Shown: positions 9,001 through 57,000 of the stretch, piece after piece | Layout: every line of letters starts with the position of its first letter | Position numbering within the stretch: position 1 is the first letter of the stretch | Source of the DNA: an uncultured Planctomycetales bacterium | Lineage (GTDB): Bacteria; Omnitrophota; Gorgyraeia; Gygaellales; Profunditerraquicolaceae | DNA: 64,000 nucleotides | NCBI GenBank assembly: GCA_964603585.1 | Contig: CAZRVK010000003.1 | Span: 3,693-67,692 of the forward strand | Direction: 5' to 3' | Notes under the pieces: model-generated | Told to the model about the DNA's origin: nothing | What the model saw: the letters and a program-made list of their open reading frames with translations, nothing else | The model's database searches: none | Made by a program: the position numbers and the translations under genes

Positions 9001-12000
9001 GTATCAATTATCAGCCGAAGAGAGAGCTCTTATATATAAGCTTTTTGAGTATGCTGATCTTAGCGTTTTATGGCAGGCAAAAAGTGTTTTAGCTTCGTAT
9101 CTTAGAGAGACTAATAAATTAGACACGACAGATATTTATGTTCAAGATATCGCAGGTATTTTTGGGGCTGAAGAAAGATGTAATGTTACTTATGCTACAG
9201 CAGAAGAAGTGGTAGGGAATATAAGAAAATCTGGAGGCGTTGCGGTTTATGCGCATCCAGGTTGGTACTTTGCCAATATTTTCCGTGAGCTCGGAATTCA
9301 AGAGACCTTGGATGGTGTCGCAGGCTTGATTGAAGGAATCAATCATAATACCCAGGGAGGTATTTCGGGAATAGAGGTTTATTATCCTTTTCAAGACCGG
9401 CTTAAGGGCGTTGATGATATTGCTGGAGAAAAGCAAGAATCGACAAAAGTAAAGTATTTTAGAGAAGTCGCCGAGAAATTAGGAATGTTTAGTACTTCCG
9501 GAGTAGATTGGCATAAAGGTAATAATGAGTTTGAGCATATGTCTACAGGGAGGAATTATAATCTTCATGCTTCTTACAGAATGGTCCTGGATATTCAGTG
9601 GGCTGCTAAGAATAGCCAGGTTATTCTTCAAACTTCATCGCTTCGCAAATCGCCCATTTTACAAAACAGTGTTCATATAGGCGGGCATGGTGAAGGATTA
9701 GGTTCTGTTTTTATTTTGCCCGAGAAGAAAACGCTTTCAGGATTTAGTCTTGATAACGGTGGATTTTTTAAGACATTTTTCCGAAATAGTCGAGGGGATG
9801 AATTTCGTAAGCAGCGTGCTAAAGCGCAGGAAGTCTTTGGATTTGTTCCTTACGGCAGTGTCCCGGTATCTTTGCTTGGCCGTGCTCCTCCCAGATTACG
9901 CATTATTCCTGTTTCTTCAAGACCAGCGAATATCAGAGTTGTCGCAGGACTTGTGGCAAAGATCGCGGCTGGCTTAAAACAAAGTTTGCCTACCGGAATA
10001 AAAATAGAGATAGCTGAACCCGCGTTATGCGACGATCTGTTCACAGCAATATCTGTCCCTTATTTAGTTTATCGGCATCAATATGCTTTACCGTATAGCA
10101 TAGAATCAGTATCTGCCGAAATCCCCACTTTAATTATTACTGATTCCGATCTGACTGGTTTCGGTCCTCAGGGGGAGATAAAAAATTATCTTTTTGGCAG
10201 GACATATCCCGCCAATAATATTACTATTACATCGCTTTTTAGATTTCAGCATCATGATAAAAAAGTTCTTCTTGGCAGGAATATTAAGAACGCGCTTCAT
10301 GAAATTGGACATTTGTTTGGATTAGGAACCAGCCGTGCGCGCCTAAGCGCTATGCAACATTGCGCTGATTTGAGGTGCGCGATGCACTTTACTGTTAATG
10401 TAGAAGAGCTCGATAAGGTTAACACTCGTTTTTGTAAAGCATGCAGCGCAGCTCTTGAACAACTGGGTGTAGTCCGTTCAGGCCGTTCTCTTGACAATGG
10501 CGGCACCGAGGAGAATGCGCTTACTTTCCCCAGGGTTAACCCGACAACAGCTAAGTCTTGGAATAAGCTAAAGGCACTTTTTGAGCGGATGAAGAAGGTA
10601 CATATGCTTGATATGTTTAACGCTGACCCAGAGCGCTTTAAGAAGTTTTCCATTCGTTTCGAAGATATGCTGGTAGATTTCTCAAAGAACATAATTGATG
10701 AAGAAGTTTTAACTGAACTTCTTAATTTAGCCCAAGAGGTTGGGCTTGGCGATGCCATTGAGGCAATGTTTACCGGCGCCAAGATCAATGGGACGGAAGG
10801 CAGAGCGGTTCTTCATACAGCTTTAAGGAATCTTTCGAATACTCCGGTTTATGTGGATGGCGAAGATGTAATGCCTAAGGTCAACCGTGTTTTAGCTCAG
10901 ATGGAAGAGTTCTCTGGAAAAGTTATATCCGGGGAGTGGGTGGGCTATACCGGGAAAGCAATTACAGATATTGTCAATATCGGTATCGGCGGCTCAGACT
11001 TAGGGCCGGTGATGGTAAAAGAAGCTTTAAAACAATATTCTGCGCGTAAAGGTTTAAGAGTGCATTTTGTGTCTAATGTGGACGGAACGCATATCGCAGA
11101 AATCCTCGCAGGCCTTGATCCCCAGACAACCCTGGTTATTATTGCTTCAAAGACCTTTACCACCCAAGAGACTATGAAAAATGCCAATACGGCTAAGGCA
11201 TGGTTCTTAGAAGAAGCAAAAGATAAAGAGCATATTAAGAAGCATTTTGTGGCAGTTTCTACAGCCAAAGAAGAAGTCCAGAAGTTTGGTATTGATACCG
11301 CGAATATGTTTGAGTTCTGGGATTGGGTGGGAGGAAGGTATTCTGTCTGGTCGGCAATCGGGCTTTCCGTGGCATGTTATATCGGTTTCGATAATTTTAA
11401 GCAGTTGCTTGCTGGCGCGCATGCTATGGATAAGCATTTCAGGAATACACCGTTTAACCGGAATATTCCTGTGATCTTGGCTTTATTAGGTGTCTGGTAC
11501 AATAATTTCTTTGAAGCCCAGACCCAGGCGATTCTTCCTTACGATCAACACTTACACCGTTTTGCCGCTTATTTCCAGCAGGGAGATATGGAGTCAAACG
11601 GCAAATATGTCGACCGTAACGGGAATCCGGTCGATTATCAAACTGGTCAGATTATTTGGGGTGAACCAGGAACAAATGGCCAGCATGCTTTTTATCAATT
11701 AATCCATCAGGGGACAAAAATAATACCCGCTGATTTTATTGCTTTTGCTCAAAGAAGCAATCAAGATTTTGATAAAGACCCAGAACTGAAGGCGTGTTTA
11801 GACGAACATCATAGAATATTCCTTTCCAATTTCTTTGCCCAGACCGAAGCTTTGATGAAAGGCAAATCTGCCGAAGAAGTCAGAGAAGATTTTAAGAAGG
11901 AAAATGCCAAAAGAAAAGCTAAAGGCCAAAAAGAGTTAACCGAAGAGGAGATCGTTCGGCTTACTCCTTTCAAAGTTTTTAAAGGCAACCGGCCAACTAA

Positions 12001-15000
12001 CTCGATCATGGCTAAGAAGCTTACACCTTATACACTTGGCGCATTGGTAGCGATGTATGAACACAAGATCTTTGTGCAAGGCCTGATCTGGAATATCTAT
12101 AGCTTTGACCAATGGGGGGTAGAGCTTGGTAAGAAACTTGCGGAAGGGATCTTGCCTCAGCTTGATCCTGAAGCTGAAGTAACCGGGCATGATTCATCGA
12201 CAACAGGTCTAATTGGTACTTATAAAGAAATGGCGGAAAAAGATAACGGGTCTATCGATAATGGCGGTTCTTATGCAAACAATATCCCCTTAGCATCTCA
12301 ATCTTCGATTAAAGCTGTGATCTTTGACTGGGGTAATGTGATAACGAGATTTGACTACGCGCGCGCAGCACAAATGCTGGCAGATCGATATGCCGTGCCT
12401 TTTGATACGGCGGTGCGGTTTCTGGAAGGACGTAATAATGATCCGGCAAATCCGCTTTATCAGCACGAGAGATGGATGATAAATGATATACAGCTTACGC
12501 GCGCGGTGCGGGATTGGATCAAGGCACACGGCGTCTTAAGGGATTCGGAGCATTTTGATTTGCGGCAAGTTAGTGATATCTTTAACAGTATTTGGGATTC
12601 TGATATCCCAGGAGTTGTTCCTTTTATGGCTCAATTAAAAGCAAAAGGGTATCTGGTCCGTATTTTATCCAATACAACCTCAATACATCATCGCTGGTTT
12701 GGAGAACATTCCCAGGCCGCTCAAATCCTTGATTCAAAAGAGCATTTCTATGCCTCATATCGGTTAAGGCTCGCTAAGCCGGATGCAGATATTTATCGTG
12801 CGGCTATTGGGCATTTAAGGTTAAAACCGGAACAATGTTTGTTTATTGATGACACGAAGGTGAATGTCGATGGTGCAAAACGGGTTGGGATAGAAGCGGT
12901 ACAGTTTAATCCGGATGAACCCGTAGCTTCTCTTGATACAATAGTCAATACTTTGATGCGTTTGTCCTCAAAAGAAGATTCTTTAGATAACGGTGGTACA
13001 GCTATCCCGCTCGATCAAGCCCGCTCTGCCTATCGATATATTGGTATCTCGATGGGGGGTAATAAACTTGCGGTATCCATTAATGACGGCAATAACAAGA
13101 TGCTTGCTGGGCCTGCAGAATTGCGTTGGGATAGCGATCATAGGTTTGATAATGAGCAGGTAAAAGATGTATCCCGGGCTGATGAGCTGATGAATACTTT
13201 GGTGGATATGATTGCCCGTCTTGCCGATGCTAATAAGATTGCCAGAAGTAGTTTAAAAGCCATAGGCGCTGGTTTGGCAGGCCCGCTGGATAAAGCTACA
13301 GGTATTTTCGGCTCAGATTTTAAAACACCCAACCTTCCTTTTAATAAGTATCCTTTCCGCGCAGAATTACAGAAACGGCTTCTTGTCCAAGGCATAGACA
13401 TTAAACTGGAAAATATTGATATGTATAACGACGGTGAAGCAGCCTTAAGAGGAGAAAGTTTTTCTCCGGAAGGCGCTTTAGCGGATAAAGACGGCGGGAT
13501 TGTTATTATCGGTGGAGGTATTAATATCGCAGTAAATAAAAAAGGGCATGGGTTTATCTATTTTGGCCCGGTTCAGGATAAAGGAGAGATTAAGGAGTGC
13601 GGGCATAACCTTTATCAGGTAAAAGCCGCTCAAGGTAGAATTCATTATTTTTGGTCTGGAGATAGAACTTTTGGCGGGCATCCTATTGAATTGGGCAACT
13701 CTTCCGAGGCAATTAAAGCAAAATGCGGCAATATGGGTGAAGAATACGTTAGGTTGGGAGAGGAAGCGTTTAGAAAAGTATATCCTGATTATCCGTTTAT
13801 CGCTAAAGGCCTGAAAGATTTTGAGGATAGATCTTCCGGCCCGAATATCCGCAAAAGGATCGCGCAAACGATTGCCAGGGCGAAACAAAGGCATTCGCCA
13901 AGGTTAGATGAATATCTGGCGATCGAAGCAACTGCCGGCCGGCAGAAACGCGCGAATGAACTTGAGCGGGCGATTACTCCCGAGGCGGAAAGCGGTAATA
14001 GAACAGCGCTTCGGCTGATCAGGATTTTTGCCGCAGAGATCGGACAGGCATTGGCTGCTTTTATTGCACACTACCAGGAAGAAGAATTTGTGCGGCACCT
14101 GGTATTGGTTTCGGGTGTAAATGAGAATATGGGTAAGGATGTCTATGAGACTGATGCCGACAGGATTAGCGGAATAGATGCATTTATCAAACATATCCGT
14201 ATGAGCGCGCGCCGTGAGCTGATCGAGCACTTTGGTGTTGAAGCAGACCGTGCAGAGGATATGGCTTCAGGCATTGTTCGCTCCAAGATGGATTACACCC
14301 GTGAACTGTTATCGTATCAGCCGACAGATACGGAAGTAATGGACGCGTATAAACAAACTAAAACTTCAGAAGCATCTTTAGATAATGGAGGATCGAGGCA
14401 AAACTTTACGGTTCTTGTGGCAGAGGATTCTCCGGTAGAACAAGACGAGTATATTGCTAAGCTGACCGCTAAAGGATATAAAGTGGTTCTTGCCAAAGAT
14501 GGTATAGCGGCTTTGAGTTTGCTTGAAAATGGTTTGGATCCGGATCTTGTGCTGACTGATTACAAAATGCCCGGGATGCGGGGAGTTATGCTGGCAAAAC
14601 GTATCCGCCAAATGCAAGCTACCATGCCGATCGTACTGCACACCAAGGAAGATGAGGTTATCGGAACAACTTATGAGATCGCGCCAGGTGAGAAGATCAC
14701 TGGTTTAAGTAAATATGCGCAGGAGGGTTTAGATGAAGTAGACAGAATATGGGCCAAGCTTAATAGCAACCAGAATAATACGACAGAAGGATCTTTGGAT
14801 AATGCAGGAGAATATGACAATGCTTATCCTGCCTCAATGGAGTTGACATCTGAAGAAATGACATTGCCCAATATGATGTTAGAAGAAGTTCAAACAGCCT
14901 TTGGGAAAATTGCTCCTTATAGCATGGGCGCGCGGATGTTCGCTTCTGCTTTAGCGGACAGTGTGGTGATCTCTATTCTGCCTTTTGATGCCCAGCAGGC

Positions 15001-18000: not shown

Positions 18001-21000
18001 GGGAAAACAGGCGTGGGATTACAGTGTTATTCAACGCGCGAAAGTCGGCAAGGAAATACCCCGCGTTTGGCAGGATTATTTGCCTGTCTTAGAGCATGTA
18101 ATTAGTGAAGACGATCAATTTATTAGTGACGCATTTCAGAATATATTCGGTTTAGAAATAACCCGTGCAGATATATCAGGCATAAATATCGAGTATCTGG
18201 TCTCTGGTGGCATAAAACACGTTTTTGTTACAACCGTTACGCTTGTGACCGGTAAAAGATATGTGTTTGCACTAAAGCCCACAATTGTCGGTTTAAGCTC
18301 GGAGGACAGGGAAGATATCATGTCTACTATGTGGACTTGGAACGGATTTTGCAAGCGGGGCATCAAAGGGATCGCTAAATTCGGAGCAGACGCGACAGTT
18401 TATTTCAGAGATTTTCATCATTCCAGCATGATCATTGCCCAGGAGTTTGTCCCCGGCAAAACACTGAAAGAAATTATTGATGATACGGATCTTCCTTACT
18501 GGGCGAAGACCCAGGCGGTACGTAATGCCTACCGGGCATACATTACTTTACGCAAAGATAATCTCATTGCCATTACCGATCCGAAACCGGCCAATATCGT
18601 CGCCCTTAATGGTTCTATTTTCGACTGGATAATCATTGATATGGATAAACTGCGCACCGGCAGTGACCCCTTGCAGAGGGGGATGTCTGTCGAAGAATAT
18701 GAGCAAATACTCGATAACTATTATATCGATGAAATTCAAAAGCCTGTTTCAGCTGAAGCCTTGCCTGGAGTTAAGATCTTAGGCCATGGCAATTTCTTCC
18801 CGGCTGATAAAATAATCCATTTTCCTGCTGGCCAACCGTTTCCGGTATTCTTTACGCTTGACACTACCTCACATATCCGAACAGCAAAAGTTCAGATACA
18901 GGCCAAGGTATGGTATGAGGATAAACTTACTGGGGGATGGGAAGAAGCATTTATGACGATGGTAAATGATTATGAAAATGGCTCATATAGGTTCGGGGCG
19001 TATCTTCCAAGTGATTTTGAAGGCAAGTTTACCTTTAAGGCTTCAGTGGATGGCGGGATAAACTGGCATTGGGCAAATAACGGGCCTTTCGATAACAGAG
19101 TGCTTGTGCGTATCGGTAAAGAGGCTCCTTTAGATAACGGGGGAGAAATCAAGACCGGCAAAGAATTTTTAAATTACGAACCCGTAGAGTTAGGATCCGG
19201 GACAAGCGGGATAAGAGGCTTGGTTGTAAACATGTCTGATCTGGAATGTTATATCAATACAGTGGGCTTTTTGGATTATTTGAAAGGAATAGGCCTGCAC
19301 GAAGGAGGTTTGCAGGGAGGGGAATATATTTGTGTTGCCGGAGATTTGCGCTCCAGTACTCCCAGGATAATGCGGGCAGTAGCTCAAGCTGTAGTTGATT
19401 CTGGATACCGTGTCGATAATTGCGGATTCATTCCTACTCCGGCATTGGCGTATTATGCCATGCAAAACCGGCGTGTTAGTATTATGGTCACCGGAAGCCA
19501 TATCCCGGATAACCGTAATGGGATAAAATTTTACAAATCAAACGGCGAGGTACTAAAATCCGATGAGGCAAAGATCAAAGAGCAGGTAACGTATGCAAGG
19601 GGAAATATTTATGCCAAGTTAGGCATGCCGGACTCATTGTTCAATGAGGAGGGGATGTTGATAACTGTGCCGCAATTGCCCCCGGTAAATCCTGCGGCAA
19701 GAGAAATGTATATTTTTAGATATTTGTCCTTGTTCCCGAAAGAATGCCTTGCCGGTAAGAGGATCGTTCTTTATGAGCACTCTTCGGTAGGCAGGGATAT
19801 TTTAGCTGAAATTTTCTCTGGATTAGGCGCAGAGGTTATAAGGGAAGGGAGGAGCGACGGTGTATTTATACCCGTTGATACGGAAGCCATACGTCAACAG
19901 GATTTGGATTGTATAAAAGAGTGGGCAGGTATTTATAAACCATTCGCGCTTATTTCTGCTGATGGAGATGCTGACCGTCCATGGTTATCAGATGAAAATG
20001 GTGTATTACTGCGGGGTGATTTGTTAGGTGTTTTCGCGGCAAAATACCTCAAGGCGGATTTTGCGGCTGTTCCGATAAGCACTAATGACGCGGTTGATAT
20101 CGCGCTTTCCGGAGAGGTAGCAATAGAAAAGACGAAAATAGGTTCTCCTTATGTTATCGCTGGCATGTTGGATGCGGTTAAAAAAGGTTTTCGCAGGGTT
20201 GTAGCCTGGGAAGCAAACGGAGGTTTTCTTTCGCAGACGGACATCGAAATAAATAATAAGCTGCTCAAGGCTTTGCCTACCAGAGATGCGGTTTTGCCTG
20301 TTATCTGCGCGTTGCTTCTGGCTGTTGATTCTGGCAGGCCGTTATCTGATCTTATAAGTGAACTGCCTAAGCGGTTTACTCATTCCGGACTGGTCAAGGA
20401 TTTTCCCGTTCCCGCATCACAATCGGTCATTAAGAGGATCTCTCCCGGGATCACTGATGTTGATGAGGTGTGTTTTAATGATTCTGTTCCGGTATTATTC
20501 CGGGATGGCGCAGTCTTGAGGCTTTTAAATGACAGCGATATATCGAGAAAGCTGTTGGCTTATAAGGCAATGGTTGAAAAGAGATATTTCCGTACTCATG
20601 GCCTTCCGGCGATTGCGAATATTAATTTAGTTGATGGAGTAAGGATCCGGTTTAAAAATAATGACATCATTCACTTCCGGCCTTCGGGCAATGCGCCTGA
20701 ATTGAGATGTTATTCTAATGCGGGGTCTACCGATCGCGCTATGGGGTTAGTTGATATAGGATTAATGAATATAATCCCGCTGTTGGCCTCACCATCTCTG
20801 GATAATGGAGGGGAAATAGATAATGGCGGAGATATTGTTAATACTGATGGTGATTTGCATATAGTTTGGTATGGCGATGATTATCCGCAAGAACAGGCCG
20901 CTGTTTATGAAGGCCGAAAGTTTGTACGGGTATACAGATCAATCAGGATGAATAAAAAGGTTAATTCTCCAGATCAGCAATTACTTCTGCGCCTGTGGTG

Positions 21001-24000
21001 CAGCCGCGCGGATAATCCGGATAAATGGTTTGAAATCCCGGCACAGATAATAAATGATTATGGCGATGGGAGTTACCGTTTTAAAGCGGACTTACCGCTA
21101 TTTTTCTCCGGAACATATACATATGTATTTTCAGCTGACCGAGGCAAGCATTGGTCCTGGTTAAACAATGGCCTGAAAGATAACAGGCGGATTTACAATT
21201 ATGTTTCTCTATTGCCTGATTTGCGTGAACGGGAAATATCTGTTTCTTTCGATAAGAAGGCGTTGTCAATGAAGAAGATCATTGATGGATCCCCTGATAT
21301 AGAAACGTTTTTCCGTTCACGTCAAGGGCAAAGAGGGGTGGCAAAACTCGAGTATTACCGGGATGAAAAACCAGTCGGGTTTGTTTACTATTTCGCCAGG
21401 ACTGAAGTAACCAAATTAACGGCAGAAGATTATAAGGTGATCTTTGCTGATTATATAGATAGTGCGGATGAAAAGCTGGGCGGGGCAGTTGCGATATATT
21501 TCAGCAGAAAAGATATGGCGGTTGTGGTTGATCTATATGGGAACATGCAGGAGGAAGTGATCTTCGGTAACATTGAAGAAAGATCCCGGGGTGAATTAAG
21601 CTGGGATAAGGCCAGGATCGTTATTGAACTTGATAATGACCTTAATGTCCGCAAGGTCAGGCATGAAAGAAGCTTTATGGGGTTATCGCGAATGGGGATA
21701 TCCATACTAATTTCTTCTGCCGGTATCCCCGAATCTTTTCCTGAATTGTATGAAACACTTAAATATAATCTGGGTTTGTGCGATGCCAATGAGATGGTCA
21801 GGCATGTGGAGAGGACAGATAATACTGTGGTTCCCTTAAGTTTGATCTCCAGGATTAATAAAGACCCGCAAACCGCCAAGATCGAGGATATTGAGAGGAT
21901 CAAAGACTTGATTTATTGTAAAAGCTGGGCTATCCGCAGGCTTGTTTTGGGTTGTTTAAAGCAGCTTGTCCAAGTGAACAAGTTCTCTATGGAAGAGCTT
22001 GATGAATTCAGGGGATTTGCAGAACGCTGCGAGATAACCGAGGATCTGCATCTTTTGCGCAGGCAGGCGCTTGAAAGGCCGGAGGATATTACGAGCGCTT
22101 TAGCGGTGCTTTTTGGCATACAGGTGGGAGTAGATGACCTTTCCGGGATGTACGCATATTGGTTTGGCGCTGGCCAAAATAAGAATATTTACCGCCTGAT
22201 AATTTCTTTGCGCGATTCCAGAGAATTTACTATGGCCGCTTCTACTATACGGCATGACGCGATAGGGCAAGGGTTCAGCAAAACAAGAATTGATGAATCT
22301 ACGCGGTTATGGCAGGAATTGTCCGAGGCCGGCTGCCCCTATGTGTGCAAGCTCGGCAAATCCGTATGGGTTGAAGATTACCGTCCGCGTGCTGCAGATA
22401 GAAGTGTCACGCCTTCTTTAAAACCCTGGGTATATTATGATCCGGCATGCCTTATACATAATGATATTAATCTTGTATACAGGGAGTTTGTAGAAGGCGA
22501 TGATTTAGAGGATATACTGGGTGCGGAAGGATTTGCTGACAAGGAGAAAGAAGAAGCGCTCGCCGCCTGCATCAATGTTTATGATAAGCTATGGAGATTT
22601 AACGACGGGGGATATTATATCGGTGATTATAAGCCATCCAATATAATCTTGAGTAAAGACGTAAACGGCCGGTTTATCGGTAAGATAACCGATTTGGATG
22701 CTTTACGCGCAAATGGTCGTCTTGAGGTGGTTTTTAATGCGGTTAAGGTTCATGCCTGTTATTTACCGCATTTAGCGGGGCTCCTGGCTAAGGAGAGAGT
22801 TTCTCAAATAACCGGTTCATATGTTGAGGATTTAGCCGATTCTTTAGGAGAGAACATAGTGTTTAGCCAGGAATTATATCCTTTGCCTTCTTGCGCGGGG
22901 ATAAGTATGGCCATTGAGCAATTCTTGAGTGGATTACATGCAAAATTACAATTGTTTGGGCTTGCAGGTGTCATAAACTTCAGCGTGCCGCTGGTGGAAT
23001 TAGTGGCGAATACGATCCAGCATGGATTAGGGGGAAAGATAGCCGTTGTCGTAAAGACCGATACTGACTGTAATCCTACAGATATCAAGGTATATTGCCA
23101 GGATTACGGATTAGGCATGGTTAGCCCGGATAAGTTGCTCAAACAAAGCTATGAGGCGCATAAATTAAAGAAACAAAGCGAAACAGAAGCTTTGGAGCGC
23201 GATGGGCTGCAAGGTGCGCCGGTACAAAAATGGCACGGCCTCGGGATGCTTAATATGTGCGTTTACCCTGATGAAGTAGAGATCAGGACTCCCGGAGGTG
23301 TATGGATAAAAGAAAATACCGGAGACGTTGGACAGCCAATATTAGTAAAGAAAGGAGAATCAAAATTTTCTTTCGGCACTATGACAGTATTGACCTGGCA
23401 TGTCAAAGATTGGGATCTTAAGAAGGAGGCGGTTTCAGAGGTTCAATCCGGTTCTGCCGCGTTTGGAATAATTCCTGTAAGCGTATTATTCATTTTAGTC
23501 TGGGCCGTAATTTATGGTTTATTTATTAAAGGCGGATGGGTCTCTAAAAAAGAGGAGGTGACGAGATGTCAAGATTTGAACAGCTCGAGTTCACCCGCGT
23601 CATGTCGCGAGAAGCAGGGATATTTATCTTTGCAAAATATCCTGGCTGGTATTATGAGTACAATTTTCTCATTCAGCCCAATGGTAAAGTCCAGGGGAAG
23701 ACAAGTTTTAACAATTGGGTTGAACTTAGCCGTGAATTGTCTGATATGGTTACTGCCAGGGTTAAAACCGTGTTTATTAGCCAAAAAGAACGGATTTCTT
23801 CGTAAGGAAAATGGAGGTATATTTTTATCGCCGGAAAAGAAAACGATTACAAGCCATAGCTTATCTTTGGATAATGGAGGAGAGGTCCAGAAGAAAGCAA
23901 AGATCTCTATGTTTGCCAATGTAGTGCGCCAGATCAATACCGCGGCGCGCGCTATGGGGCTTCATCCGGAGATCCTGGATCGCCTGGTCAATCCTAAGCA

Positions 24001-27000
24001 TTTCAAAGAAGTGCGCATGGATATACCGGTTGCGGTCGAAGGCAAGACTGTAAATCTGATTGGATTCCGGATCGTGCATAATGATGCCCGCGGCGCAGGT
24101 AAAGGCGGGATCCGTTTTGATAATGTGAAGTCGCTGGATGATCTAAGCGCAGAAGAACTCTTAGAGGTGATTGCCCATATTCTCGATGAGGATCGGGCGC
24201 TGGCCAGTTGGATGAGCTTAAAGAATGCCGTGGCGCTTATCCCTTACGGCGGAGGCAAGGGGTGTGTGGCGGTGCCTCTGGATATTGTTCCGAAAAACGC
24301 CAAAGGGGAGGAAGTCGTCGGTTATGTGCATTCTGCGGTGATCCGCCAGTATGTTTTAAAGGCTTATGAACAGGGTAAATACCTTTTTGGGCCATATATA
24401 GATGTGCCGGCCCCGGATATGCGTACTAAAGGCCAGATCATGGGGTGGTTCCTGGATGAACATTTAAAATTAAAGACCAGGCTTAACCTTTTAGAACAGC
24501 ATTTTATAGACAGGTTACTTCCATTATTAGACACTGAATATGATATCCTTAAAACTCCTTTTTATGATTTGTACTTGTCCCTGGGAGGCACAGTTGAACT
24601 CGGTACTATTACAGGAAAACAGGTTTCAAGGGATGATCCTGAAACCGGCTCAAAAATAATGATCGGCGGGTCCTTGGGCCGTGAAGCGGCAACCGGCCGC
24701 GGTGTGGTTTATGCGACGATCGAGGCGCTCAAGGAGTTTGGTGAAAGGTTAGGTATTGGCACAGAGTTGAGAGGAAAGACCGTTGCGGTGCAGGCGATCG
24801 GTAATGTCGGCGGGCATGCCGCGAGGATTTTCTTTGAAGAAGGGGCAATTGTTACCGAAGTTAGCGATTTTCCGGGAAAAATCACTGATCCCCGGGGGAT
24901 CGATATGGCGGATCTTTTCGCACGGATAAAACGCGATGGGATGCTTAAGGCTTTCCAAGAAACCCATGGTTTTGAGCCGTCGGATAAGGCAGTATCAATT
25001 TTAGAAGCCGATGTGGATATTTTAGTGTTGGCATATCGGGAAAATCAGCTTACCAAAGATAATGCCGGCAGGGTGAGAGCCAAGATCGTTGTTGAAGGCG
25101 CTAACGGCCCGACTACTCCGGAAGCAGACGCGATCTTAGAGGCTAAAGGGATTATTGTGGTGACCGATATTTTAGCTAATATCGGCGGTGTGGTAGTTTC
25201 ATATTTTGAATGGCTGCAGAACTTAAAAGGCGAGCATTGGACGGAGATCGCAGTAAATAAGATGTTGGAACAAAGAATGGCGGTTTCCTTCCGCGATGTT
25301 GTCGCCTCTTCCCGGCAATACAATGTCAGTTTGAGGATCGGGGCGACTATTTTAGCGATAAAACGGATTGCTTCGGCAATGGTGGCAAATGATAAGGATT
25401 TAAGGCAGAAGATTTCCGCAGAAAACGTACTTCCCTATAAAGGTTACGATATCCTTGAGTGTTACGAAACTCAAGAAGAGCTCAACCTCATTTATGAATC
25501 CGGACGTTATCAGGAATTTGTAGATTTGCGTGAAGGGCAAATTGACCGTGAGATCGAGCTGATTGCCGAACGTCTCTTAAAAGAACTGCCGCAAAACAGC
25601 AAGAATTTCGTCTTGGTTTCTGGGCCTAGCGCAGTCGGTAAACCTTATTTTGTCATACGTCTTGCGGAAGCGGTCAGGCGTATTGATAGAAAGATACGTA
25701 CTTGTTGTTTTGCCTTAGATACTAACGGTGCAGCTTTATTCGATGTTATAAAGAGTTTGGATAAGAACAGCATAATATTTATTCACGGCGATAATGCCCT
25801 GGATAAATATTTTGTCAGGGCATTTAACCCCAGAAATACGATCACTATCTTTGAAAATACCGCACCCAGCCTGAAATTATCCGGCAATAAGCCTTTTACC
25901 TCGTCAGATCTTAGGCTGTTGAGACTTATCCTGGAAAAGGCCGCTGAAGGGTATTCGGCAATCGATGTGATAAGGGATTGGCATGATTTACGCGCCCAGC
26001 AGATCGAAAATATCTATCCGAACTGGGGGAATGCCCGCATTACATTTAATGGCCAGGTCGGTTATGAATTACCGTTTTTAAGGAATGCCTTAGAGGGGAT
26101 ATTAAAACAGGCTTTAGTGCAAGCCCAAGCCGCGGATGCCCCGCATTCTTTGCAGATCATCTCTGGCCTCTTGGATTTATTCCAGGGTTTTGTGGCCATG
26201 CCTTTATTAAGGGTGGAAGATTTGCCTTTGCGCTCTACCCCGCGCCAGTTTATCCGCAAGACAGAGGATGTTTTATCTGCGCTTAATTCTACGGCAAAAA
26301 TTAATGGGCAAACTCCTTCAGGCAAAGTTAATAATTATCCTCTACCCGTATCGGCCCAGATCCATGAGGGTATGCTTGAAAGCGGGGCTTCCTGTTCGGG
26401 AAAGGCCGAGGCAGTATTGCGCGACGGAAAATATATTTTTGAATGGAAAGAAAACGCTTCCGAGAACCTGTGGCGGGAGATATTGGAAAGCCTGGCAAAC
26501 GAGCAGGCGGTATTTGCCCGCGGGCCGCCGAGTTTCATTGTCGAGATCACTCTTGATAAGGAAAAACTCGGGGTACATCCGGCAAGCGGATTGGTTTATA
26601 TCGCTGCCTGCGATATCGATACGAAAGTCATTTATCTGCACCCGTACTTCTTCGAACAAAATCCATTAAAGCAAAAAGTAATTTTATACCATGAATTGAT
26701 CAGCCATATCTCTATGGCAATTAAAAACGAAGAGCAGGCTATGACAGATACCTTGGTTTTTTCCGATAAACATCTGGGTAAAGACCTGGAGAAAGATTCT
26801 GTCGACGGTATTTTTATTATCCCTGCCAGTGCCCGAAACCAGGCGTTTGCTAAGCGTCTGGTTGCTCTAAATGAACAATCCCGGAAACAGGGAACGGACA
26901 GTGTCATTCAGGCAGTGCTGGAAGATGATGAGTTAAGAACCAGGGTTTGTTCACTGATCCGCACCCAGGATAGATTGGGCAATACCCGGGGTTATTATGT

Positions 27001-36000: not shown

Positions 36001-39000
36001 TCCCTGCCAGGATAAACAGCAGCTTTTTTATCTTTTAGGAGTAAGAAATTTTAGACAGCTTCAACAAAGGATCCGTGCCCGCCGGCTGGTAACCCGCGAG
36101 ATCATTCTTTTATTAAGAGGGTTCATGTTTACCCGGTTTAAGATGCTGGGGAGGATGGTCAGGATGCCGGAAAATGCCGCCAGCAAAGCAATGAAAGCGG
36201 TATGCCTTCAGGCGTTATGCCAGATAAATAAGTTTGATCCGGCATCTTTTTCTAAGGCGTTGTTCGAACTTGACCAGAGTGATGGGGAGCAATTACGAAA
36301 AGCAAAGGTTTCAATAAACCTGTTGCCGATGATACGGGAAGCGGTTGAGGCAACCGAAGCCGTAACCACTGGCTCGCATGGGATCAGTGCTTTTAGCCAG
36401 TCGCAAGGCGCCGCGCTTTATCCGGGCCTGGCTAAAGAGTTCAGGTTTATGCGCCGGGCGATATTTACTATCGCTGCCGAATATATTAAAGTTTCGGGAA
36501 AGATCCTGGGCCCGCCGAGCAGGATGGCGATCGCCAGGAATATAAAAGGCAATATTTGGAATATTAAGGGAAAAGAAAAATATGCCAGAATAGTTTTAAG
36601 GAATGCCGGTTACAGCAATCGCGAAATCGCATTTATTATTACGCAGATCAAAATCCACGAATCTTATCCTACCGAAGAAAAAGCCCTTCGCGCCCAGGCA
36701 GTTTACTTTATCCTTCTACGCTTGAATTATCCTAAACCAGCCATCCAGCGCATTAGTACAGAATTCATGAAGACCATGAGTATCCTGGATTTTGAGTATT
36801 GCCGCAGAAAAATAAATTCAAGGAACATGCCAAAGTCAAAGAACGCTTTATTGGCGCTTATGGGATTATTGCGCGATTTAGGGTTTCATAATAGCCGGCA
36901 CCCCCGGCCATTGATCAAGATGCTTGTTACTGCCCTTAATCACCGGGATATATTTAAACTGCTGGATAAATCCAGTATCCCCTCCAGGGATATTATAAGA
37001 ACAAAGAGGATGCTTGTATCTTGTGCTGCGTTATCGCAGTTGGCATATATACTTTTGGTGCTTTTCGGAATGAATGTGCGCGGAGCGCATGTGTATAATC
37101 CTTTGCGTCTGACTTCGGATCACGCTTTAACTGTTATACCGTTAAAGGGTAAAAGAATGTTGTTTGCCGATTTCTCCCTGGGGGTGGCCAGAGAGATCGA
37201 TATGGAGAAGTATTACCGTAAGGAAGGTAAATACTGGGTGATAAAGAAGGAATTACGATATAAGAAACCGCAGTTAAAAGAGATAAAAAAAGCGTACCGT
37301 AAAAAAGCCGCCAATTCAATGCCCGATCAAGATCTGCTCAATCTTTATTATTTTGCCGTGCAGGTCACAAATGGTCGTGCTTTGACCCCGGTGATGCATG
37401 TTAATCTCGGAGTTGCTTATTTAGAAGCCTCTGCAGGTGATAAGTCTAAAGCCAGGTCCCAGAGGATGATATTAAGCGCTATTCGGCATTTTAACCTATC
37501 GCGCGCTATGGAGCCGTCAAATGCGATCCCATCCAATCTTTTAGGGCTGTCTTATAATTATCTGCGCTGGTATAAAGAAGCCGCCGCTGCATATAAGACC
37601 GCCATTCGGCAATACCCCAGTTTTTCCTCGGCTTTATTTGGCCTGGCTTTTGTTTGCAGTAAAATGAACCTCCCGGCTAACAGGGTCATGGGCTTTCTGA
37701 TCAAGGCGGTGCGCAATAATCCGGTTTATTTGAATGGGTTGACTAAAAACTTAAGGAAATTCATCAGGGGGCGGATTGCTTCTACCGGAGGATTTTCCGC
37801 TATAAGGCCGTTTCCCGGGTATATGTTCGATCCTCGCGGCCAAAGGACCAGGATCAAGCAGGCGGCAGTTTTACCTGCGAAATATGTCTCTTCCAGAGGT
37901 GAATTGTCCTATGAGGGGGAAATAGCGCTAAGAGGTGATTTGAAGAAATCAGGATATACCAAGGATAAAAGGGATGCGTTCATCGCAAATTTCCGCAGAT
38001 TTAATAAATTTTATGCTTTAGCTTGCAGTAAATCCCAGGGGCAGATCCCCAACATCAGCAGTCATCTGGTATTTTATACCGGGCTTACCTTTGGCCTTTA
38101 TTTTGGGATGCAAAAGGTTGGGCTGCATGCCTGGTTCTTTGACGGGACATTGGAGAATAAAGGCGTAACGCCGGCAGGGGTAAATTTAACCGCTTTAATG
38201 ACCCGGGCACACGAAGAATGGGAGGCGCAGGATTTTGACCATGCCGAGATCATTATAAAACAGGCGGCATTATTCCTGGCCTGGCCGGCTAAGTGGCAGC
38301 AGGAATTTTTAGGCGCTTTGGAGATCATTGAGCCCAGAAGACAATGCCAGTATAATCTCTTCTTTTTCTCAAGGCTAAAACAATCTTTTGACCTCCAGCG
38401 TAACGAACTCAAAAAACATTCTTTAGGGTATCGCCTGGAGGTTATTTTAAAAAATGGAGAAGTCAGGTATGGATATAATCTTTTGCTTGATTTTGCTGAC
38501 CAGATCCCGCGTTACTTGAGCTCGCAGGTTTATAGCGGTACTCCCAGGAAAATAGATTATTGTGATTTAGAAAGATTTTATGGCGCGGGATTGATCCATG
38601 ATGTGCTGGCGATAAGAGAAACTTTACCCGATGAGAATTTACGCTATGTTTTAGGATATATCCTGGATACGGCAAGGCTTGCCTGGACCAAAGAACAGAT
38701 CATGCACATCGCATCACTGCTTGTAAGATATCGCTCTCTTGCGGGATTCAGGCAGGCGATGGGAGTTTTAACGAATGAAGTAGAGCCAGGGGTAATGGGA
38801 GTGCTAAGGGAGTTGGTTTATTATTCCCAGGCGGTCCAAAAGATAAAAAGGATGACCGGCGGCGACGTCCAGGATATTGCTATGCGGGCAACGGTTAATG
38901 ATGATCTTGGGATCTGCACGGATATTGATTTTGTCTTTCGCCTGCGTAACAGCGCTTTGCGCCAGTTCCGGGATGGCATTTATTGGTTCCAGGCGTCTTT

Positions 39001-42000
39001 GCATCCGCAAAACGGAAAAGGGGTCATGGGAATCCGGACAATGGACCGGGCAATGCAGGCTTTACGCAGTAATGGTACTATAACGCCTCAAGAGATCGAT
39101 ATGAATTCGATTGTTTCAGGAAAGAGTAAATTTATCCGGGGTATTATTTTTGCCTATGACCAAGTCCGGGTAAGAGGCCGTAATGTCGAGTTAGAAGAAG
39201 TTTATGCCAAGGAGATCGCCCAAACTAATGCACTTGTGAAAGTTAAGCCGCATTGTTTTGGCATAGATGAATCCAAATATCTGCCTAAGCCGGTATTAAA
39301 CGAGGAAATTGCCGCGCAGGAAGATGGTGGCGAGATTATTAGTGGTAATGTATCCGGTTTTTCCCCGCAAGGTTCAGGGGTATTGATCTTGGCAGCAGTT
39401 ATTATTGCCGTAGTGTTTATAACACTGCCCAGGATATTAAAACGTAGAAATAATGACCATGTCGTTACTAAGCCTTCTGCATTAGATGGTATTCTGGATG
39501 ATTTGTTTGTTGCTCCAGTAAGAAGGCAATTTGAGCAGATCAAAAGGGAAGTTGAACAGAAAGATACAGGTAAGGATAAGAATGATCATACCCCGCATGC
39601 GTTAGGGTTAGGCATTTATGCGCCAGGCGGAGAAATGGATCCTGCTGCGGAGTCCCGCACCGTAAGTGTTTTAAAACAGATCCAGGAGCAAAAAAGAGTT
39701 GTTTCGTATTCGGCTTTACCCGCAGAACTCATCAGTTGGATAGAGGAAAAACCGGAGATTGCGCGCTTGTTGCAGAATGAGAGGGTCGGTATCATTTTAC
39801 CGGATAAAAATATGCAGCAGAGAGCCCCGCCTTTTATCTGGTATGAATCACGTACGCGCTTTTTAGCCGCGGTTACTCTCGAGGGCAATATTTATATACC
39901 TTTTCAGCTTTTAATCCTACTTCTTCTTAATTCCCAATACCGCCTGTTAGTAAATGTTATTGAGCATGAGTTCAGGCATTTGTCCGCATGCCCGGAAGAT
40001 ATCGATGCGGCTGTAGAATTATCCCGTGCTTTGCGTAAATTCACGTTTCAGCATAGGGTGTACGGAAGAAGATTATACCTGGGGAATGTTTTTTCGGCAA
40101 AAGAAAAGGTGTGGATCGAACATGCCTCTGGGGATTCTTTCACTATTTTTACTCAATCGCAGTTGGATGCATATATTAAAGAAGTCGAACAGGATATTTA
40201 TAACAGTAATGATGAAGATACTAAACTCGAATCCGAGATCTTATTTTATGCTTCTCTTTTTGAAGCTGAGGTTAATCAAAAAGGGGAAGTTCTACTGCCG
40301 GAAGCATGGAGTAATTATTTCGGCAACAGGAGGCGGTTTTTATTTTGTACGTACTCGTATGGGATAGAGGCCACGGCCTTAAGGGATTTTAACTATGACC
40401 TGGAGGCCAAGGCGTTTTACCTGCAGGTTTATCGGGCAAATGGTTTGTCCGGGGATATTACCGGTCTGCTTGAACATATTCGCCGAGGAGGGATCACGGC
40501 ATCCAGGATCTCCGACAAGTTAGGATTAAGTTATGCGGAAAAAGAAAAATTGGCATTGGCTTTTGCCCTGCATGATCTGGGAAAGATGCATAATAATGAG
40601 TTGTGGCAGATCATTAATTCCGACAGGGTGATCCCCCGTGATCCGGAAAACCCGGAAAGGAAATTGCTTAGCCGGCATGCGGATTTTTCCGTTGAGATCG
40701 TGCAGGAATTAGGGTTGGGGGTTTGTGAAGATGTTTTAACTCTGGTTAAATATCACCATCATCCGGAAGCTATAGGGGATGAAAGGCTGCGGTATCTCGC
40801 CGAGATCATTTATTGGGCGGATGTTACCGATGCCCTGGTTGCAGTAAGGCCATATCAGAATCCGGAGTGGGAGGTTGAGTCCAGACAGGATTTTCATGAA
40901 ACTATTTTACGCATGCATAAAAATGCTTTTAGCATGGGGATATGCCATACTCAAGATGTTTTTGACGCTTTATGCGGTTTTGCATTTAGCTCTGAATATC
41001 CCGGACTTTATCCGGAAATACCTCATTTATCCGCGATAGGCGGTTTTGCCTTTGCTCCGGAGGCAATAGCCATAATGCTGGTTTTGTCGGCTGTCTTCGT
41101 AGCGGTGCGGATCATTTCTGGGAAAAGCCGTATGCGCGCAAGTGCCGTTAATAGTGCGGGTAGCCCTGTTCTGGCCTCAAGTGCCGCTTTAGATGATCTT
41201 ATACAGATGGGGTTGTATCCAGAAAAGGTTAATAGCCCGGGGAATATTCATGTAGATGTAGAAACGGCTGGGGTATCCGGGGATGAAACTTTACGTAGTT
41301 ATCTTGGTGAAGTTGTAAAGCCCGGGATGCTTGTAGCTGATGTCGGTGCAGCGCGCGGCGCAAGGGCGCTTGTTTCGGCGCGCCTTGGAGCTGAAGTTGA
41401 TGCGATTGAGATACATTATTCGACCCTGGAAGAAGCCAGGTTACGCATCTCGAAAGAACCTCCCGAGACAGCAAAACGGATCAATCTGGTTTTGAGTGAT
41501 TTATTTGCTAACCCTGTTCTTTCCGAAAAGCGTTATGACATAATTGTATTTTCTCCCCAGGTTGTCAACGAAAGAGAGCCGGCGACTGATCCGGATCTGC
41601 TGCGGATCATCGAAGACCCAGGGTTCAGGCTTATTTCCAGGTTCTTAGAGGCAAGCCGGGATCATTTAAGGCCCGGAGGGAAATTGATCGTCGGTTATGG
41701 CTGGCAGGATTATTCTTACGATGACGGTTTTGTTTTTGGCGGAGGCCTTCAGACATTAGAAAGAGTGGGAGGCGCCTGGTGGAATATACAGCGCGTAGTT
41801 TCAAGGGAAAGTTTGCTTTTTGCGGTCTATGAATTAACGCTGAAAGAAACACAGCCTGCGGACAACTCGGTTGTAAGCTTTAAGAATGTTTTTCCATTTA
41901 CATACGATCGGGATGGGAAGCATCGTCAGCGTATTTTAGATTCGGATAGGATTGTGAGTTTAGACGTTGAATTTAGCCTGCCCGTAGAAAAAGAGTTGGT

Positions 42001-54000: not shown

Positions 54001-57000
54001 GGAAAATATTGATAATGACGCGGAGTATAGGCAAGCGGCGCTATCGTTAATCAAGAAATTTATTGCAGGTAATCAAGATGCAAATAGAAGGGTTTCACCA
54101 GGTGATAGTCAGTGTAAGGGTTCGTTTGCTGTGGCGCCAATTACTGTGCCTTTGGGAATGAGTCTGGCAAGTCTTACGGTATTATTTATGATCGCTTTAA
54201 GCGCATTCTTAATGGCTCAATCCCAGCGCGGTCCGCCGTCTTTGAGTGAGGATCAAGCATCCCAACATCAAGATATTAATCCCTCTGATGTTATAAGAAA
54301 AATCTCCCCATATTTATTAAGAGCAGTGATCCGGCTGCATGATTTTAAGGCAGATGGTGTGATCACCCGCATTTATCTGACCGGAAGTTTTGCCTGCGGT
54401 AAACTCAAAACACCTCCCGATGATATTGATTTTGCTGTAAGTATATCCAACAGCTGTTTCAGGCAGCTTCCTGATTCAAGCGAAATAAACCGGATGGCGG
54501 ATGAAATAGAAGGTATTGGCCGCCAGGCCGGTGTTGTTTTTCATCTTACCCTTGATGCCTTTGGCGAGGTATTTTCTCCTCACGAGGCCCTTATCGCAAC
54601 AGGTGAAGTAAGAAACCGCGCTTTGGTGGAATTGATGCAGAAAAACGGTGATCATAAGACAATATTGATCGACTTGACGGATGCCAATATCACCGGCGAA
54701 GGGTTTTTTAATAAACTATATGCGATGGCTTTAGATAAAAATGCTCATAGCCAATGTTCTTCTCTATTGTTTGCTCCGTATTTGGACTTCATTATCCAGG
54801 GAGGATTGATTTTTATTTTCTCGGCCTTTATTTTCGCGATTATTTATCGCTTAAGCCTGCCAGCCGAAGATTATAATATACACCTTTATCGAGAACTTAG
54901 AATGCCGCTGGATGATTACCTGGATTCGCAGGTAGCCTATTTCCTGGATGGCGCTTTTCTTAATGAGGATATAAATGCTGATCAGTTCGTATCGGATATC
55001 CTGCGGCCATTTAAGGCCCCGCGCTGGGATATCGCTAAAGCCTTCCTGATTTATTCTGCGGCAAGTTTTATTGCCGGGGCATTTGCTTTTGTTTTTATCC
55101 TTTGGATGATAATCCCTGGTTTTACTCCAGGATATATCATTAATTTTCTTGGGGTGTTCCTGTTTATTTATGTTGCCGCGTTATCGGCGGGGTTGATCTT
55201 TACTTATTTCAGAATGTTTTTGGGAAAAAATCTTTATTCTGGGGCAAAGACAGATCCTCGCGATGAGTTCTACAAACACTTGCTTAGCCATCTGGAAGAT
55301 ATTACTCTGGCGCATGCCAGGCCAAACTGGCAGCGCCAGTGTGCTTATTTCCTGTATTTGTCATTAGTGGAGATGGTGCATGCCGCGCCTGAATATCAAA
55401 GGATCCGTGATTTTGCCAGAAGAACCGATGTCCGGAAGTTTGAAAGAATATTCCCCAGGCCAGTTTTTAAAGCTGGTGCGTCATATAATCTTATCGCGCC
55501 GTTTGCCGCTTCCCCGGTATTGACTTTAACGATACTTTTAGTTATTTTTATCCTTCCTGTGCTGCATTCGATAAATCAACATGAAAAAAAGCGCCATTTG
55601 ATCTGGGAGAACAGCAGCCGTCCGAGCGGGTATGTTTTGCCTAAGATCACCCAGGCCAACAGCATATTGCGCCAGGCGCGTCAACTTGTGCGCACTCCGC
55701 TTGTCCCGATGCCGAGGTTAAGCCGTATTACCGCCAAACAGGTATTTTTAAAAGATGAATCGGTTCAAGCCGCGCATTCTTTTAAGATTAGAGGTGTGCT
55801 GGTAGAAGTCGATGAGGCGATCAGGCGGCATATTGAAGTGATAAAAAGATCTCCGGCGCTGCGGTTGATGCCGTTTTATTTAGTGACCCAAACTGTCGGT
55901 AATCATGGGATCGCGATGATAGAGGCGGTGCGGTTTTGTGTGGAGAAATACCGTGCGCTTTATCCTCAATACGCCCGGTCTATCTTGCGGATCGAGCCGG
56001 TTGTATTTACTAATGCATCTTTGCCGCAGGTAAAGCGCGAAGGATTGAATACCGCTTTGAAAGCTTACCGGGCCTTTGTAGGTAAAAGTGATCAGGGGAA
56101 TATTGATTGCCACTTTGGTAATTATTTACAGGCGCGCATGGCGCGGGAAGTATTTATTGCGCTTCATCCGGCAAACTCAATATATATGGCGCATGGCGGG
56201 TTGGATATTATGGCTGGGCATGCAAGCGCCGGCATAGAAATTGCCGAGCAGCTTAAAGGTTTGGGGATAGATAGCTCAAAAAAGGTTGTGCTGCTTATTC
56301 CGGTAGGCGCCGGCGGGCCCTTAGGTATTGCTGCGGGTTTAAAAATGGAGATGCCTGAAGCTTCAGCGGTTATGGTACAGAGCGATCAATATTCGGCATT
56401 TGTCGCCAGCCTCATTTCCGGCTCGCTTATGAAGAATGACCTTGCGCAGGCCGCACCGCTTGTCATTGATGGCAAGGATTTCATTTTTGAGGATGGTATT
56501 GCCGTAGATGCTCCGGAAAGAGCGGCGATAGATATCGCTAAATGCATCCTTAATGCTGCCGTTACAGTAGGTTCCTTGAGTGCTTTGAATCGCGCCGCCG
56601 CAATTGTCTATGCCGATCTTAGTGGGTTTTATGCCGGACAGGGTGCAGTGGTGGGAGGAACTACTGCCGTAACCGCAGAGGCCCTCTTAGAACATTCCGC
56701 CAATATCGAATCGCTCCGGCAGGCGGATGTAGCCGTAATTCTCGGTACCGAAGGGAATGTCGATGGGCATATTACCAGATATATCCGTCAACGCGCGCAA
56801 GTTCAGGAAGATGGAACAGCCTGCGCGCTCTTTCTTTCAGGGTTTATTTCTGTAGTATTATTGGTAATCGCATTTATGCTGATCTGCCCGGCGTTAGATA
56901 TCCGCTCCAGCAGACAGGGATCCGTTTTACTTACTCCGGATTATCTGCGCAGGCTCCGGCTCAAGATCACCAGCAATGGTGCGGATACCGCAAGACTGTT

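Follow-up and report, generated by a model that had tools for sequence, protein, structure and literature searches.

What is an archaemetzincin, a zinc peptidase of family M54, doing inside a giant bacterial gene? The stretch analysed here, referred to throughout as the window, comprises 64,000 nucleotides (nt) of contig CAZRVK010000003.1 (assembly GCA_964603585.1, positions 3,693 to 67,692 of the forward strand), from an uncultured bacterium named as Planctomycetales and placed by GTDB in the Omnitrophota. A six-frame stop count shows that frame +2 (nt 2-64000, plus strand) is free of stops over 21,333 codons and open at both ends, while every other frame of the window holds 640-1714 stops. 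Residue i of this open reading frame (ORF) begins at nt 3i-1. By its stop count, Pfam domains and relatives, it is a giant multi-enzyme ORF of the Omnitrophota type. Pfam, applied to the window in two offset tilings with thresholds down to E 0.05, finds more than 25 different families, none of them dominating, along its at least 21,333 amino acids (aa). These include B12-binding/radical SAM, CofD, DUF362, PHP, Peptidase_M54, glucose-6-phosphate isomerase (PGI), HAD, ROK, response-regulator receiver, 2'-5' RNA-ligase-like, PGM/PMM I-IV, Glu/Leu/Phe/Val dehydrogenase, glycogen phosphorylase-like, sigma-70 region 4, PTA, acetate kinase, HD, several methyltransferases, cytidine deaminase, PALP and HATPase_c. 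Across the 21,333 codons Pfam detects no peptidase family other than Peptidase_M54; because about four-fifths of the ORF, on a rough tally, has no Pfam match, further proteases may lie undetected. Neither a C39 (PF03412) nor an S8 domain is matched by Pfam in the window, beyond which the ORF continues, and an Rfam scan of the whole window returned no RNA family. A crude hydrophobicity scan marks 21 transmembrane-like segments in the ORF, 19 of them after aa 7960.

The M54 cassette comprises 241 aa (aa 3255-3495, nt 9764-10486) and has the hexapeptide SLDNGG on either side, at aa 3249-3254 (nt 9746-9763) and at aa 3496-3501 (nt 10487-10504). It starts directly after the first of these, as a preliminary description made from the sequence had stated. 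The cassette opens with an N-terminal linker or extension (aa 3255-3293, nt 9764-9880) that is modelled with low confidence and measures 17-40 aa in relatives. A RAPP tetrapeptide follows at the N-terminal edge of the M54 fold (aa 3294-3297, nt 9881-9892), at a position conserved in embedded relatives; in the model it sits at the turn from the disordered linker into the first beta-strand. The catalytic domain proper (aa 3298-3495, nt 9893-10486) contains HEIGH (nt 10298-10312), with the predicted zinc ligands H3433 and H3437 and the predicted catalytic base E3434, and the 31-residue active-site peptide that begins there spans aa 3433-3463 (nt 10298-10390). A subfamily-specific insertion of 10 residues (nt 10328-10357) lies between the glycine turn and the third His. 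Next comes HCADLRCAM (nt 10358-10384), which by alignment provides the third His (H3453), Cys3454 and Cys3459 of a Cys4 zinc site, and the Met-turn residue M3461. The distal CXXC of the Cys4 site is CKAC (C3478 and C3481, nt 10433-10444), and the second SLDNGG begins 15 residues past it, with a complete PGI cassette next. Upstream, a PHP cassette ends in LQTSSLRK (aa 3209-3216, nt 9626-9649), the last copy of a different junction peptide. Between the two junction types lies a 32-aa spacer (nt 9650-9745) carrying a 15-residue peptide, a similar copy of which is found at nt 23813-23863. All of these features are on the plus strand.

The cassette is almost certainly an archaemetzincin (M54) family domain, divergent but complete. 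Pfam PF07998 (Peptidase_M54) matches it at E 5.9e-14, with 52.9 bits against a cut-off of 24.4, so that the family assignment of the preliminary description stands. The best NCBIfam match is archmetzin (NF033823, 'archaemetzincin family Zn-dependent metalloprotease') at 72.3 bits, below that model's cut-off of 145. A phmmer search of PDB sequences matched archaemetzincins of known structure, namely 2x7m, 3lmc, 3zvs and 4axq, with E values of 3e-9 to 2e-8. AlphaFold (AF2) reached a predicted local distance difference test (pLDDT) of 34 from the single sequence; a useful model needed an alignment of 11 sequences, termed A1, with which pLDDT rose to 83.7 and the predicted TM-score (pTM) was 0.81. 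The zincin fold is present in this model, which is closest to archaemetzincin structures. With Foldseek, the top five PDB matches all belong to the archaemetzincin family (four named AmzA, and 3lmc, deposited as 'zinc-dependent peptidase'), with a best E of 4.5e-11 and TM-scores of 0.64-0.83 over these five when normalised by target. Fragilysin, MMP-7 and ulilysin came far behind.

Is the active site intact? The motif had been described as HExxHxxGx3CX4CxM; the CX4CXM part matches, but the gap from Gly to Cys is 13 residues and not 3. The 10-residue insertion separates HExxHxxGLG from an HC pair equivalent to the canonical third His and Cys. Consequently the cassette departs from the metzincin spacing HExxHxxGxxH and has Thr at the canonical third-ligand position. 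H3453-C3454 aligns with the HC of 2x7m and 3lmc, and in the PDB alignments CX4CXM and the distal CXXC follow HC at a spacing identical to that of MkAmzA; the published archaemetzincin signature is HEXXHXXGXXHCX4CXMX17CXXC (PMC3427221). In alignment A1, whose 11 sequences are 32-51% identical to the window cassette, columns H179, E180 and H183 (the HEIGH residues named above), G186, C200, C205, M207, C224 and C227 are invariant, and H199 is nearly so. Judging from these columns, the M54 zinc ligands and catalytic residues are under selection, and the cassette is probably catalytically competent. We regard as very improbable the alternative that the module is catalytically dead or regulatory, the insertion having disrupted the HExxHxxGxxH zinc site. 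Besides the Thr at the third-ligand position, that alternative can draw on AMZ1, which has N, S or T at this position and whose activity has been questioned (PMC3427221), on the archmetzin score below cut-off (72 vs 145), and on the existence in NCBIfam of a non-proteolytic archaemetzincin-like family, which the cassette matches weakly. However, the match to this non-proteolytic family reaches only 33.8 bits, far under archmetzin. Likewise, within the clade that has the insertion, the HExxH with its Glu, the His next to Cys, the Met-turn and the four Cys show little or no variation, and the AF2 model has a pLDDT of about 90 over the insertion. An antisense ORF of 163 aa (nt 10297-10788, minus strand, TTG start) overlies the catalytic region; it is wholly inside strongly supported sense coding and most likely spurious.

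A word-indexed protein search with the cassette alone gave no match, and single-sequence scans of genome and metagenome collections gave no relative. An exhaustive HMMER search of 1.84 billion representatives returned 367 matches with a clear break after the first 11, and an alignment-based scan of genome and metagenome contigs returned 88 loci (proteins and loci are cited below by P and L numbers, respectively). The best relatives are 33-56% identical to the cassette and are mostly parts of long proteins (1057, 1138, 1424, 1603, 2074, 2947, 6200 and 7074 aa) with an internal M54 module; the closest loci are 40-48% identical across the whole cassette. Contigs titled Candidatus Omnitrophota account for three of the six closest loci and seven of the 12 giant-ORF-type loci, and three short contigs are binned elsewhere. 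L001-L003 and L007 carry this title, as do the more distant L008, L010 and L018 (31-34%), and L049 is on a 335-kb metagenome contig (Ga0315279_10000025). In L001-L008, L010 and L049 the M54 module sits in a stop-free ORF that leaves at least one end of the locus and mostly both; the ORF of L018 measures 416 aa and is cut at one end. The Desulfobacterota loci that we inspected, together with one from Acidobacteria and one from Planctomycetota, are stand-alone ORFs of 185-400 aa, and no junction motifs are present in the inspected Desulfobacterota ORFs. M54 modules were found in at least 12 giant-ORF fragments. In eight relatives a [LFIVY]DNG- or TNG-type peptide stands on either side of the module, in ORFs that also hold HAD, ROK, PRK, PGM and glutamate dehydrogenase (GluDH)-like modules.

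The insertion has a narrow distribution. Canonical GxxH spacing is present in 116 of the 150 best homologues, these 116 being short proteins, and an insertion of 7-12 residues is confined to 11 of the 150: nine long, giant-ORF-type sequences or fragments (P0001-P0006, P0010, P0011 and P0063) and the short P0007 and P0008. P0008, annotated 'archaemetzincin [Planctomycetota bacterium]', is a stand-alone gene of 232 aa with ordinary neighbours (a ferredoxin-like gene, a cupredoxin and small ORFs). Since P0008 is free-standing, the insertion marks a subfamily and is not by itself an adaptation to polyprotein life. Two further relatives bear on processing. The lineage of L007 and P0009, whose junction peptide is PRTNGS, has an M54 loop that lacks the insertion and has Asp as the third ligand. 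P0063 (7,074 aa) begins with a Met start and an N-terminal Peptidase_C39 domain (residues 1-250, E 1.3e-7), and also has an M54 module (approximately aa 4466-4589) and DNGN junctions; M54 and C39, both candidate processing proteases, can thus coexist in one giant ORF.

The peptides that delimit the cassettes are of two types. LQTS[GS][VIL]RK occurs in six copies, all within aa 227-3216, and [SP][LFI]DNGG marks eleven junctions, all within aa 3249-7960, one of which is directly trailed by a second DNGG. The M54 cassette is the first past the switch from the one type to the other. In shuffling, DNGG is expected 0.23 times and observed 12 times, S[LF]DNGG is expected 0.002 times and observed 9 times, and LQTS..RK is expected 0.001 times and observed 6 times. 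The codons of the junction peptides vary synonymously, which indicates that the peptide, rather than a repeat in the DNA, is what selection maintains. The conserved junction peptides noticed earlier are therefore real and selected at the peptide level, and they are zoned: the 17 junctions lie between aa 227 and aa 7960, and no recurrent junction motif was found in aa 7961-21333. Past aa 7960, cassettes with junction peptides at their ends seem to give way to a stretch interspersed with transmembrane helices. Two other origins of the junctions were considered and set aside, namely DNA-level recombination repeats, in view of the synonymous codon variation, and an N-glycosylation sequon, in view of the fact that N-G-S fits some lineages only and DNGG does not fit.

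The junctions split aa 1-7960 into the 32-aa spacer and cassettes that measure 237-1017 aa, and the cassettes with Pfam matches mostly hold one enzyme each. For example, the PGI cassette (nt 10505-12256, 584 aa) contains a complete glucose-6-phosphate isomerase, matching the full Pfam PGI profile at E 1.7e-240; its residues 10-575 align with residues 3-546 of the 549-aa protein 3nbu at E 3e-238. At most nine extra residues per side separate the native ends of PGI from the junction peptides, so that the junction peptides replace the stop/start boundary of complete proteins. We propose that the junctions are plausibly functional boundaries and candidate processing sites. The idea that the ORF encodes a polyprotein fares well as far as complete proteins in one ORF and conserved boundary peptides are concerned, PGI being the example, and fails to extend past aa 7960, where the motifs are absent; on these features of the sequence it would be a reasonable reading.

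Junctions in the relatives are lineage-specific. L001 has KP[LF]DNG[GS], and L049 has GSLDNG[SAGD], 13 times in 6,861 aa. None of the relatives shows the LQTS..RK motif, and no lineage-specific junction motif was found in the 6,000-aa ORF stretches of L008 and L010. Only a [DT]-N-G core is shared across the junctions of the lineages, including DNGN and PRTNGS, which indicates the Asn-Gly pair as the functional centre. We also note two doubled junctions in the window, DNGSIDNGG (nt 12242-12268) and a 12-residue motif (nt 20795-20830). Likewise, the pattern G[SG][VI]F[IL]xPEKKT[LI][ST]...SLDNGG is common to the 32-aa spacer and the junction at aa 7938-7960; the relatives show no counterpart of this extended spacer peptide.

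The RAPP at the edge of the M54 fold belongs to a second recurrent signature. R[AG]PP occurs five times in the window against 0.29 expected, with RAPP at aa 3294 (nt 9881-9892) and aa 13274 (nt 39821-39832), and RGPP at aa 8840 (nt 26519-26530), aa 18076 (nt 54227-54238) and aa 20674 (nt 62021-62032). In a pool of giant ORFs (70,261 residues) that was chosen for M54 modules, R[AG]PP occurs 19 times against 0.88 expected (RAPP 11 against 0.49, RGPP 8 against 0.39), an enrichment of about 20-fold overall and about 12-fold without the M54 sites. The carriers among the relatives are L001-L004, L006, L007, L008, L010, L049, P0001, P0004, P0011 and P0063. Ten of the 11 other permutations of each tetrapeptide are absent from the pool, the exceptions being APPR (1), PGRP (1) and PRAP (3, overlapping RAPP). 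At the M54 edge, embedded relatives have RAPP in eight cases, RSPP in two and RDPP in one, and no RxPP of this type is present in 139 short homologues. RGPP and RAPP are reported to be more strongly under-represented in bacterial proteomes than any other tetrapeptide, with ribosome arrest given as the cause, and RSPP and RDPP as partially permissive (PMC12992588).

Most R[AG]PP sites lie upstream of HExxH-type motifs, about 135 aa upstream in the M54 modules and 30-55 aa upstream in much smaller modules. Three of the four non-M54 sites in the window are followed, 40-53 residues on, by HEFRH, HELISH or HESYP, and the same pairing of RxPP with HE occurs in L007, L008, L010 and P0011. The mini-modules measure about 80-110 aa and comprise RxPP, a strand, a 'hP' element and then HExxH, HExxxH or HES. 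A second bare HExxH had been noted earlier, and it is indeed present as IEHEFRHL at aa 13320-13327 (HEFRH, nt 39965-39979); bare HExxH occurs twice in the window against 0.48 expected (shuffle p of about 0.09), which is not significant alone. On the plus strand, this second zincin-like element runs from a RAPP to HEFRH 44 residues on (nt 39821-39979, by motif and profile), and a third runs from an RGPP to HELISH (nt 26690-26707) 53 residues on (nt 26519-26707), with a homologue in L008 and P0010. Pattern matching marks further RxPP-type mini-modules at nt 62021-62173 and nt 36506-36679. Of these, aa 12168-12241 (LGPP...HESYP) is an internal paralogue of aa 20673-20740 (E 4e-8). Pfam assigned no family to three RxPP...HE mini-modules, and a profile of five modules, two from the window and three from relatives, found minimal zincins as its top PDB matches at E 0.1-0.4, which is not significant. 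We considered three possible functions of RAPP and RGPP: a programmed pause, a site at which zincin modules mature themselves, and a structural cap.

What, then, is the role of the M54 cassette? We judge the chances to be about even that it is cargo with the usual function of its family, and not a dedicated cutter of the junctions. M54 would be carried as one enzyme among many, delimited by the same SLDNGG peptides as PGI, HAD and ROK, and would act as a small, narrow-specificity cytoplasmic zinc peptidase, as do free-standing archaemetzincins. The cassette is bracketed by junction peptides exactly as its neighbours are, which is the appearance expected of cargo, although the proteases of viral polyproteins are flanked in this way as well. 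Several observations weigh against cargo. M54 is the obvious in-window candidate if the protein is processed, being the only peptidase that Pfam detects there. The R[AGSD]PP that precedes embedded M54 modules recurs ahead of the HExxH mini-modules, and no RxPP was found at the other cassettes examined, which suggests that protease-like modules are treated specially. The different M54 loop of the PRTNGS lineage would fit co-evolution of protease and site, in one lineage. Moreover, archaemetzincins have no known natural substrate, and it has been proposed that their specificity is very stringent (PMC3427221). Finally, with four-fifths of the ORF lacking annotation, the case for cargo is partly a base-rate argument.

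The preliminary description had proposed instead that the embedded peptidase processes the junctions, in cis or in trans. In its full form the proposal is that the ORF encodes a polyprotein from which M54, cutting SLDNGG and/or LQTS[GS]xRK or its own RAPP linker, releases the enzymes. Nothing we found links M54 to the junction peptides, several results point the other way, and we consider the proposal unlikely. In its favour, the junction peptides are real, vary in their synonymous codons and are placed between cassettes; the PGI cassette ends within nine residues of native termini; the one peptidase detectable by Pfam has conserved catalytic residues; and each of the at least 12 giant-ORF fragments with M54 has the module flanked by the local junction variant. 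A hydrophobic L or F before DNG would suit the P1' preference of a metalloprotease, and AMZ-tk cleaves itself in a Zn-dependent manner (PMC4681839). Against this, two unrelated motifs in one ORF would need two specificities, and aa 7961-21333 have no junction motif. The distant M54 modules of L008 and L010 lie in ORFs that lack recurrent motifs, and P0008, of the same subfamily, is a lone gene in genomic surroundings that lack giant ORFs. The idea that the junction directly following M54 is peculiar in lacking the hydrophobic residue is not supported (Fisher p 0.21). The archaemetzincins characterised in vitro behaved like aminopeptidases, lacked specificity or were inactive, and so differ from endoproteases that cut at specific sites (PMC3427221, PMC4681839). 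C39, the family that others have proposed for processing, co-occurs with M54 in P0063. A broader version, in which giant ORFs are cellular polyproteins whose junctions are cut by M54 together with the mini-zincins, and in which RAPP and RGPP are programmed pauses or self-maturation sites in co-translational folding and processing, strikes us as improbable.

Something else might cut the junctions, either a C39-type peptidase elsewhere in the ORF or autocatalysis at Asn-Gly, which would leave M54 a bystander; we think this unlikely. C39 and S8 are reported to occur in nearly all giant proteins of Omnitrophota, and it has been proposed that they cleave these proteins (10.1101/2023.11.21.568195); PF03412 is the largest architecture cluster in a 2026 survey (10.64898/2026.06.07.730766). 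DNGG resembles a double-glycine site, the Asn-Gly pair is invariant and recalls the chemistry of asparagine peptide lyases, [DT]-N-G is the sole core invariant across lineages, and P0063 unites C39, M54 and DNGN junctions in one ORF. However, neither C39 nor S8 is matched in the window, though the ORF runs on past its end; the position that follows DNG is variable (G, S, N, A, D), a poor fit to a GG/GA/GS site; and a conserved upstream amphipathic leader was not found. Non-enzymatic chemistry at Asn-Gly, moreover, is usually deamidation and not chain cleavage. Alternatively, the giant protein may stay uncleaved, with the junctions serving as hinges or docking motifs between tethered enzymes and a tethered M54 acting on other substrates. 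Cleavage has never been demonstrated for Omnitrophota giant proteins, and peptides of one 39,678-aa ORF have been seen by proteomics (10.1101/2023.11.21.568195, PMC10066038). D-N-G is a strong beta-turn former, and the last 13,000 codons are free of motifs and have about 19 transmembrane-like segments instead, which suggests a membrane-anchored scaffold. Yet a motif of 6-8 residues, kept across lineages whose M54 modules are 40-48% identical, exceeds the needs of a hinge. In addition, PGI is a dimer and GluDH a hexamer, and complete oligomeric enzymes would assemble only with difficulty if left uncleaved on linkers of about 20-30 residues from one native terminus to the next. All told, an uncleaved chain seems to us unlikely.

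Whether Omnitrophota giant proteins of 20,000-147,000 aa act as single chains or as many cut enzymes is an open question, and according to earlier authors analysis could go no further for want of known cleavage points (10.1101/2023.11.21.568195). The locus described here supplies exact candidate cut sites, no more than nine residues from the native PGI termini, and a candidate protease cassette with an identifiable catalytic Glu. It also shows an unexpected enrichment of RAPP and RGPP, motifs otherwise purged from bacterial proteomes. Together, the junction peptides and the RAPP/RGPP signature make the question of cleavage directly testable, and M54 as the processing enzyme is a testable minority hypothesis that we hold to be unlikely. 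Were it true, the junctions would be the first natural archaemetzincin substrate, which has been unknown since 2005. Should M54 be no more than cargo, the gain is modest: a known family is extended into a class of giant genes that was itself known.

The cassette is an insertion-bearing, ORF-embedded variant of M54 inside that class. Giant ORFs have been recognised as characteristic of Omnitrophota (PMC10066038), and multi-enzyme ORFs of giant size are already on record for this phylum. The 'Archaeovorins' of West-Roberts et al. 2023 carry glucose-phosphate isomerase, PGM/PMM and other glycolytic domains (10.1101/2023.11.21.568195), and a 2026 preprint describes 'multi-enzyme metabolic clusters' of up to 147,155 aa that are rich in PGM/PMM, receiver, radical SAM, ROK, HAD, methyltransferase, HATPase and HD domains (10.64898/2026.06.07.730766). 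Like these, the window is stop-free over more than 20,000 codons and tiled with varied enzymes, including PGI; it also has many transmembrane-like segments, and its closest relatives are in metagenome-assembled genomes of Omnitrophota. The papers on these ORFs name C39 and S8 as possible processing enzymes and state that the cleavage points are unknown (10.1101/2023.11.21.568195). The texts of the 2023 and 2026 papers and one 2026 supplement mention neither M54, nor the junction peptides, nor RAPP, and none of the publications searched combines archaemetzincins with Omnitrophota.

In comparison with characterised archaemetzincins (AfAmzA, 3zvs/4axq; MkAmzA, 2x7m; AMZ-tk; human AMZ1 and AMZ2), the cassette has the same fold, a core of about 190 aa, and the HExxHxxG..HCX4CXM(16)CXXC pattern, including the Met-turn and the Cys4 zinc finger. 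It differs in the 10-residue loop between GLG and the third His, which is common to about 10 relatives, in its N-terminal extension with RAPP, and in being embedded in a giant ORF, whereas the archaemetzincins stand alone at about 170-190 aa. Similarly, the mini-module profile finds its best PDB matches among the minigluzincins and minimal zincins (projannalysin MJ1213, 4qhf; proabylysin, 4jiu; snapalysin, 1c7k), matches that are not significant and are partly driven by HExxH; one mini-module has HExxxH (HELISH) and two have only HES. The RAPP and RGPP tetrapeptides are identical to those of the arrest peptides ApdA, ApdP and ApcA (Fujiwara et al. 2025, PMC12992588), and the variants in the relatives belong to the arrest-competent or partly permissive set. 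Known arrest peptides, however, have the motif near the C-terminus of a small protein that is secreted or membrane-bound and encoded ahead of a regulated gene, whereas the motifs of the window are internal to a giant ORF, at the N-terminal edge of zincin-like modules.

Finally, the window can be compared with viral polyproteins and their proteases, such as picornavirus 3C, coronavirus nsp5 and alphavirus nsP2. The window belongs to a cellular organism, its cargo is housekeeping metabolism and signalling, its candidate protease is a metzincin where the viral enzymes are chymotrypsin- or papain-like, and only the first 37% of the window has motifs. The resemblance drawn in the preliminary description is legitimate as a hypothesis, within a class of giant multi-enzyme ORFs that had already been described. 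In both systems one ORF encodes complete proteins separated by boundary peptides, among which a protease cassette is itself bracketed. If the embedded zincins do cut the junctions, the window would represent a bacterial counterpart of viral polyprotein expression, applied to the housekeeping proteome.

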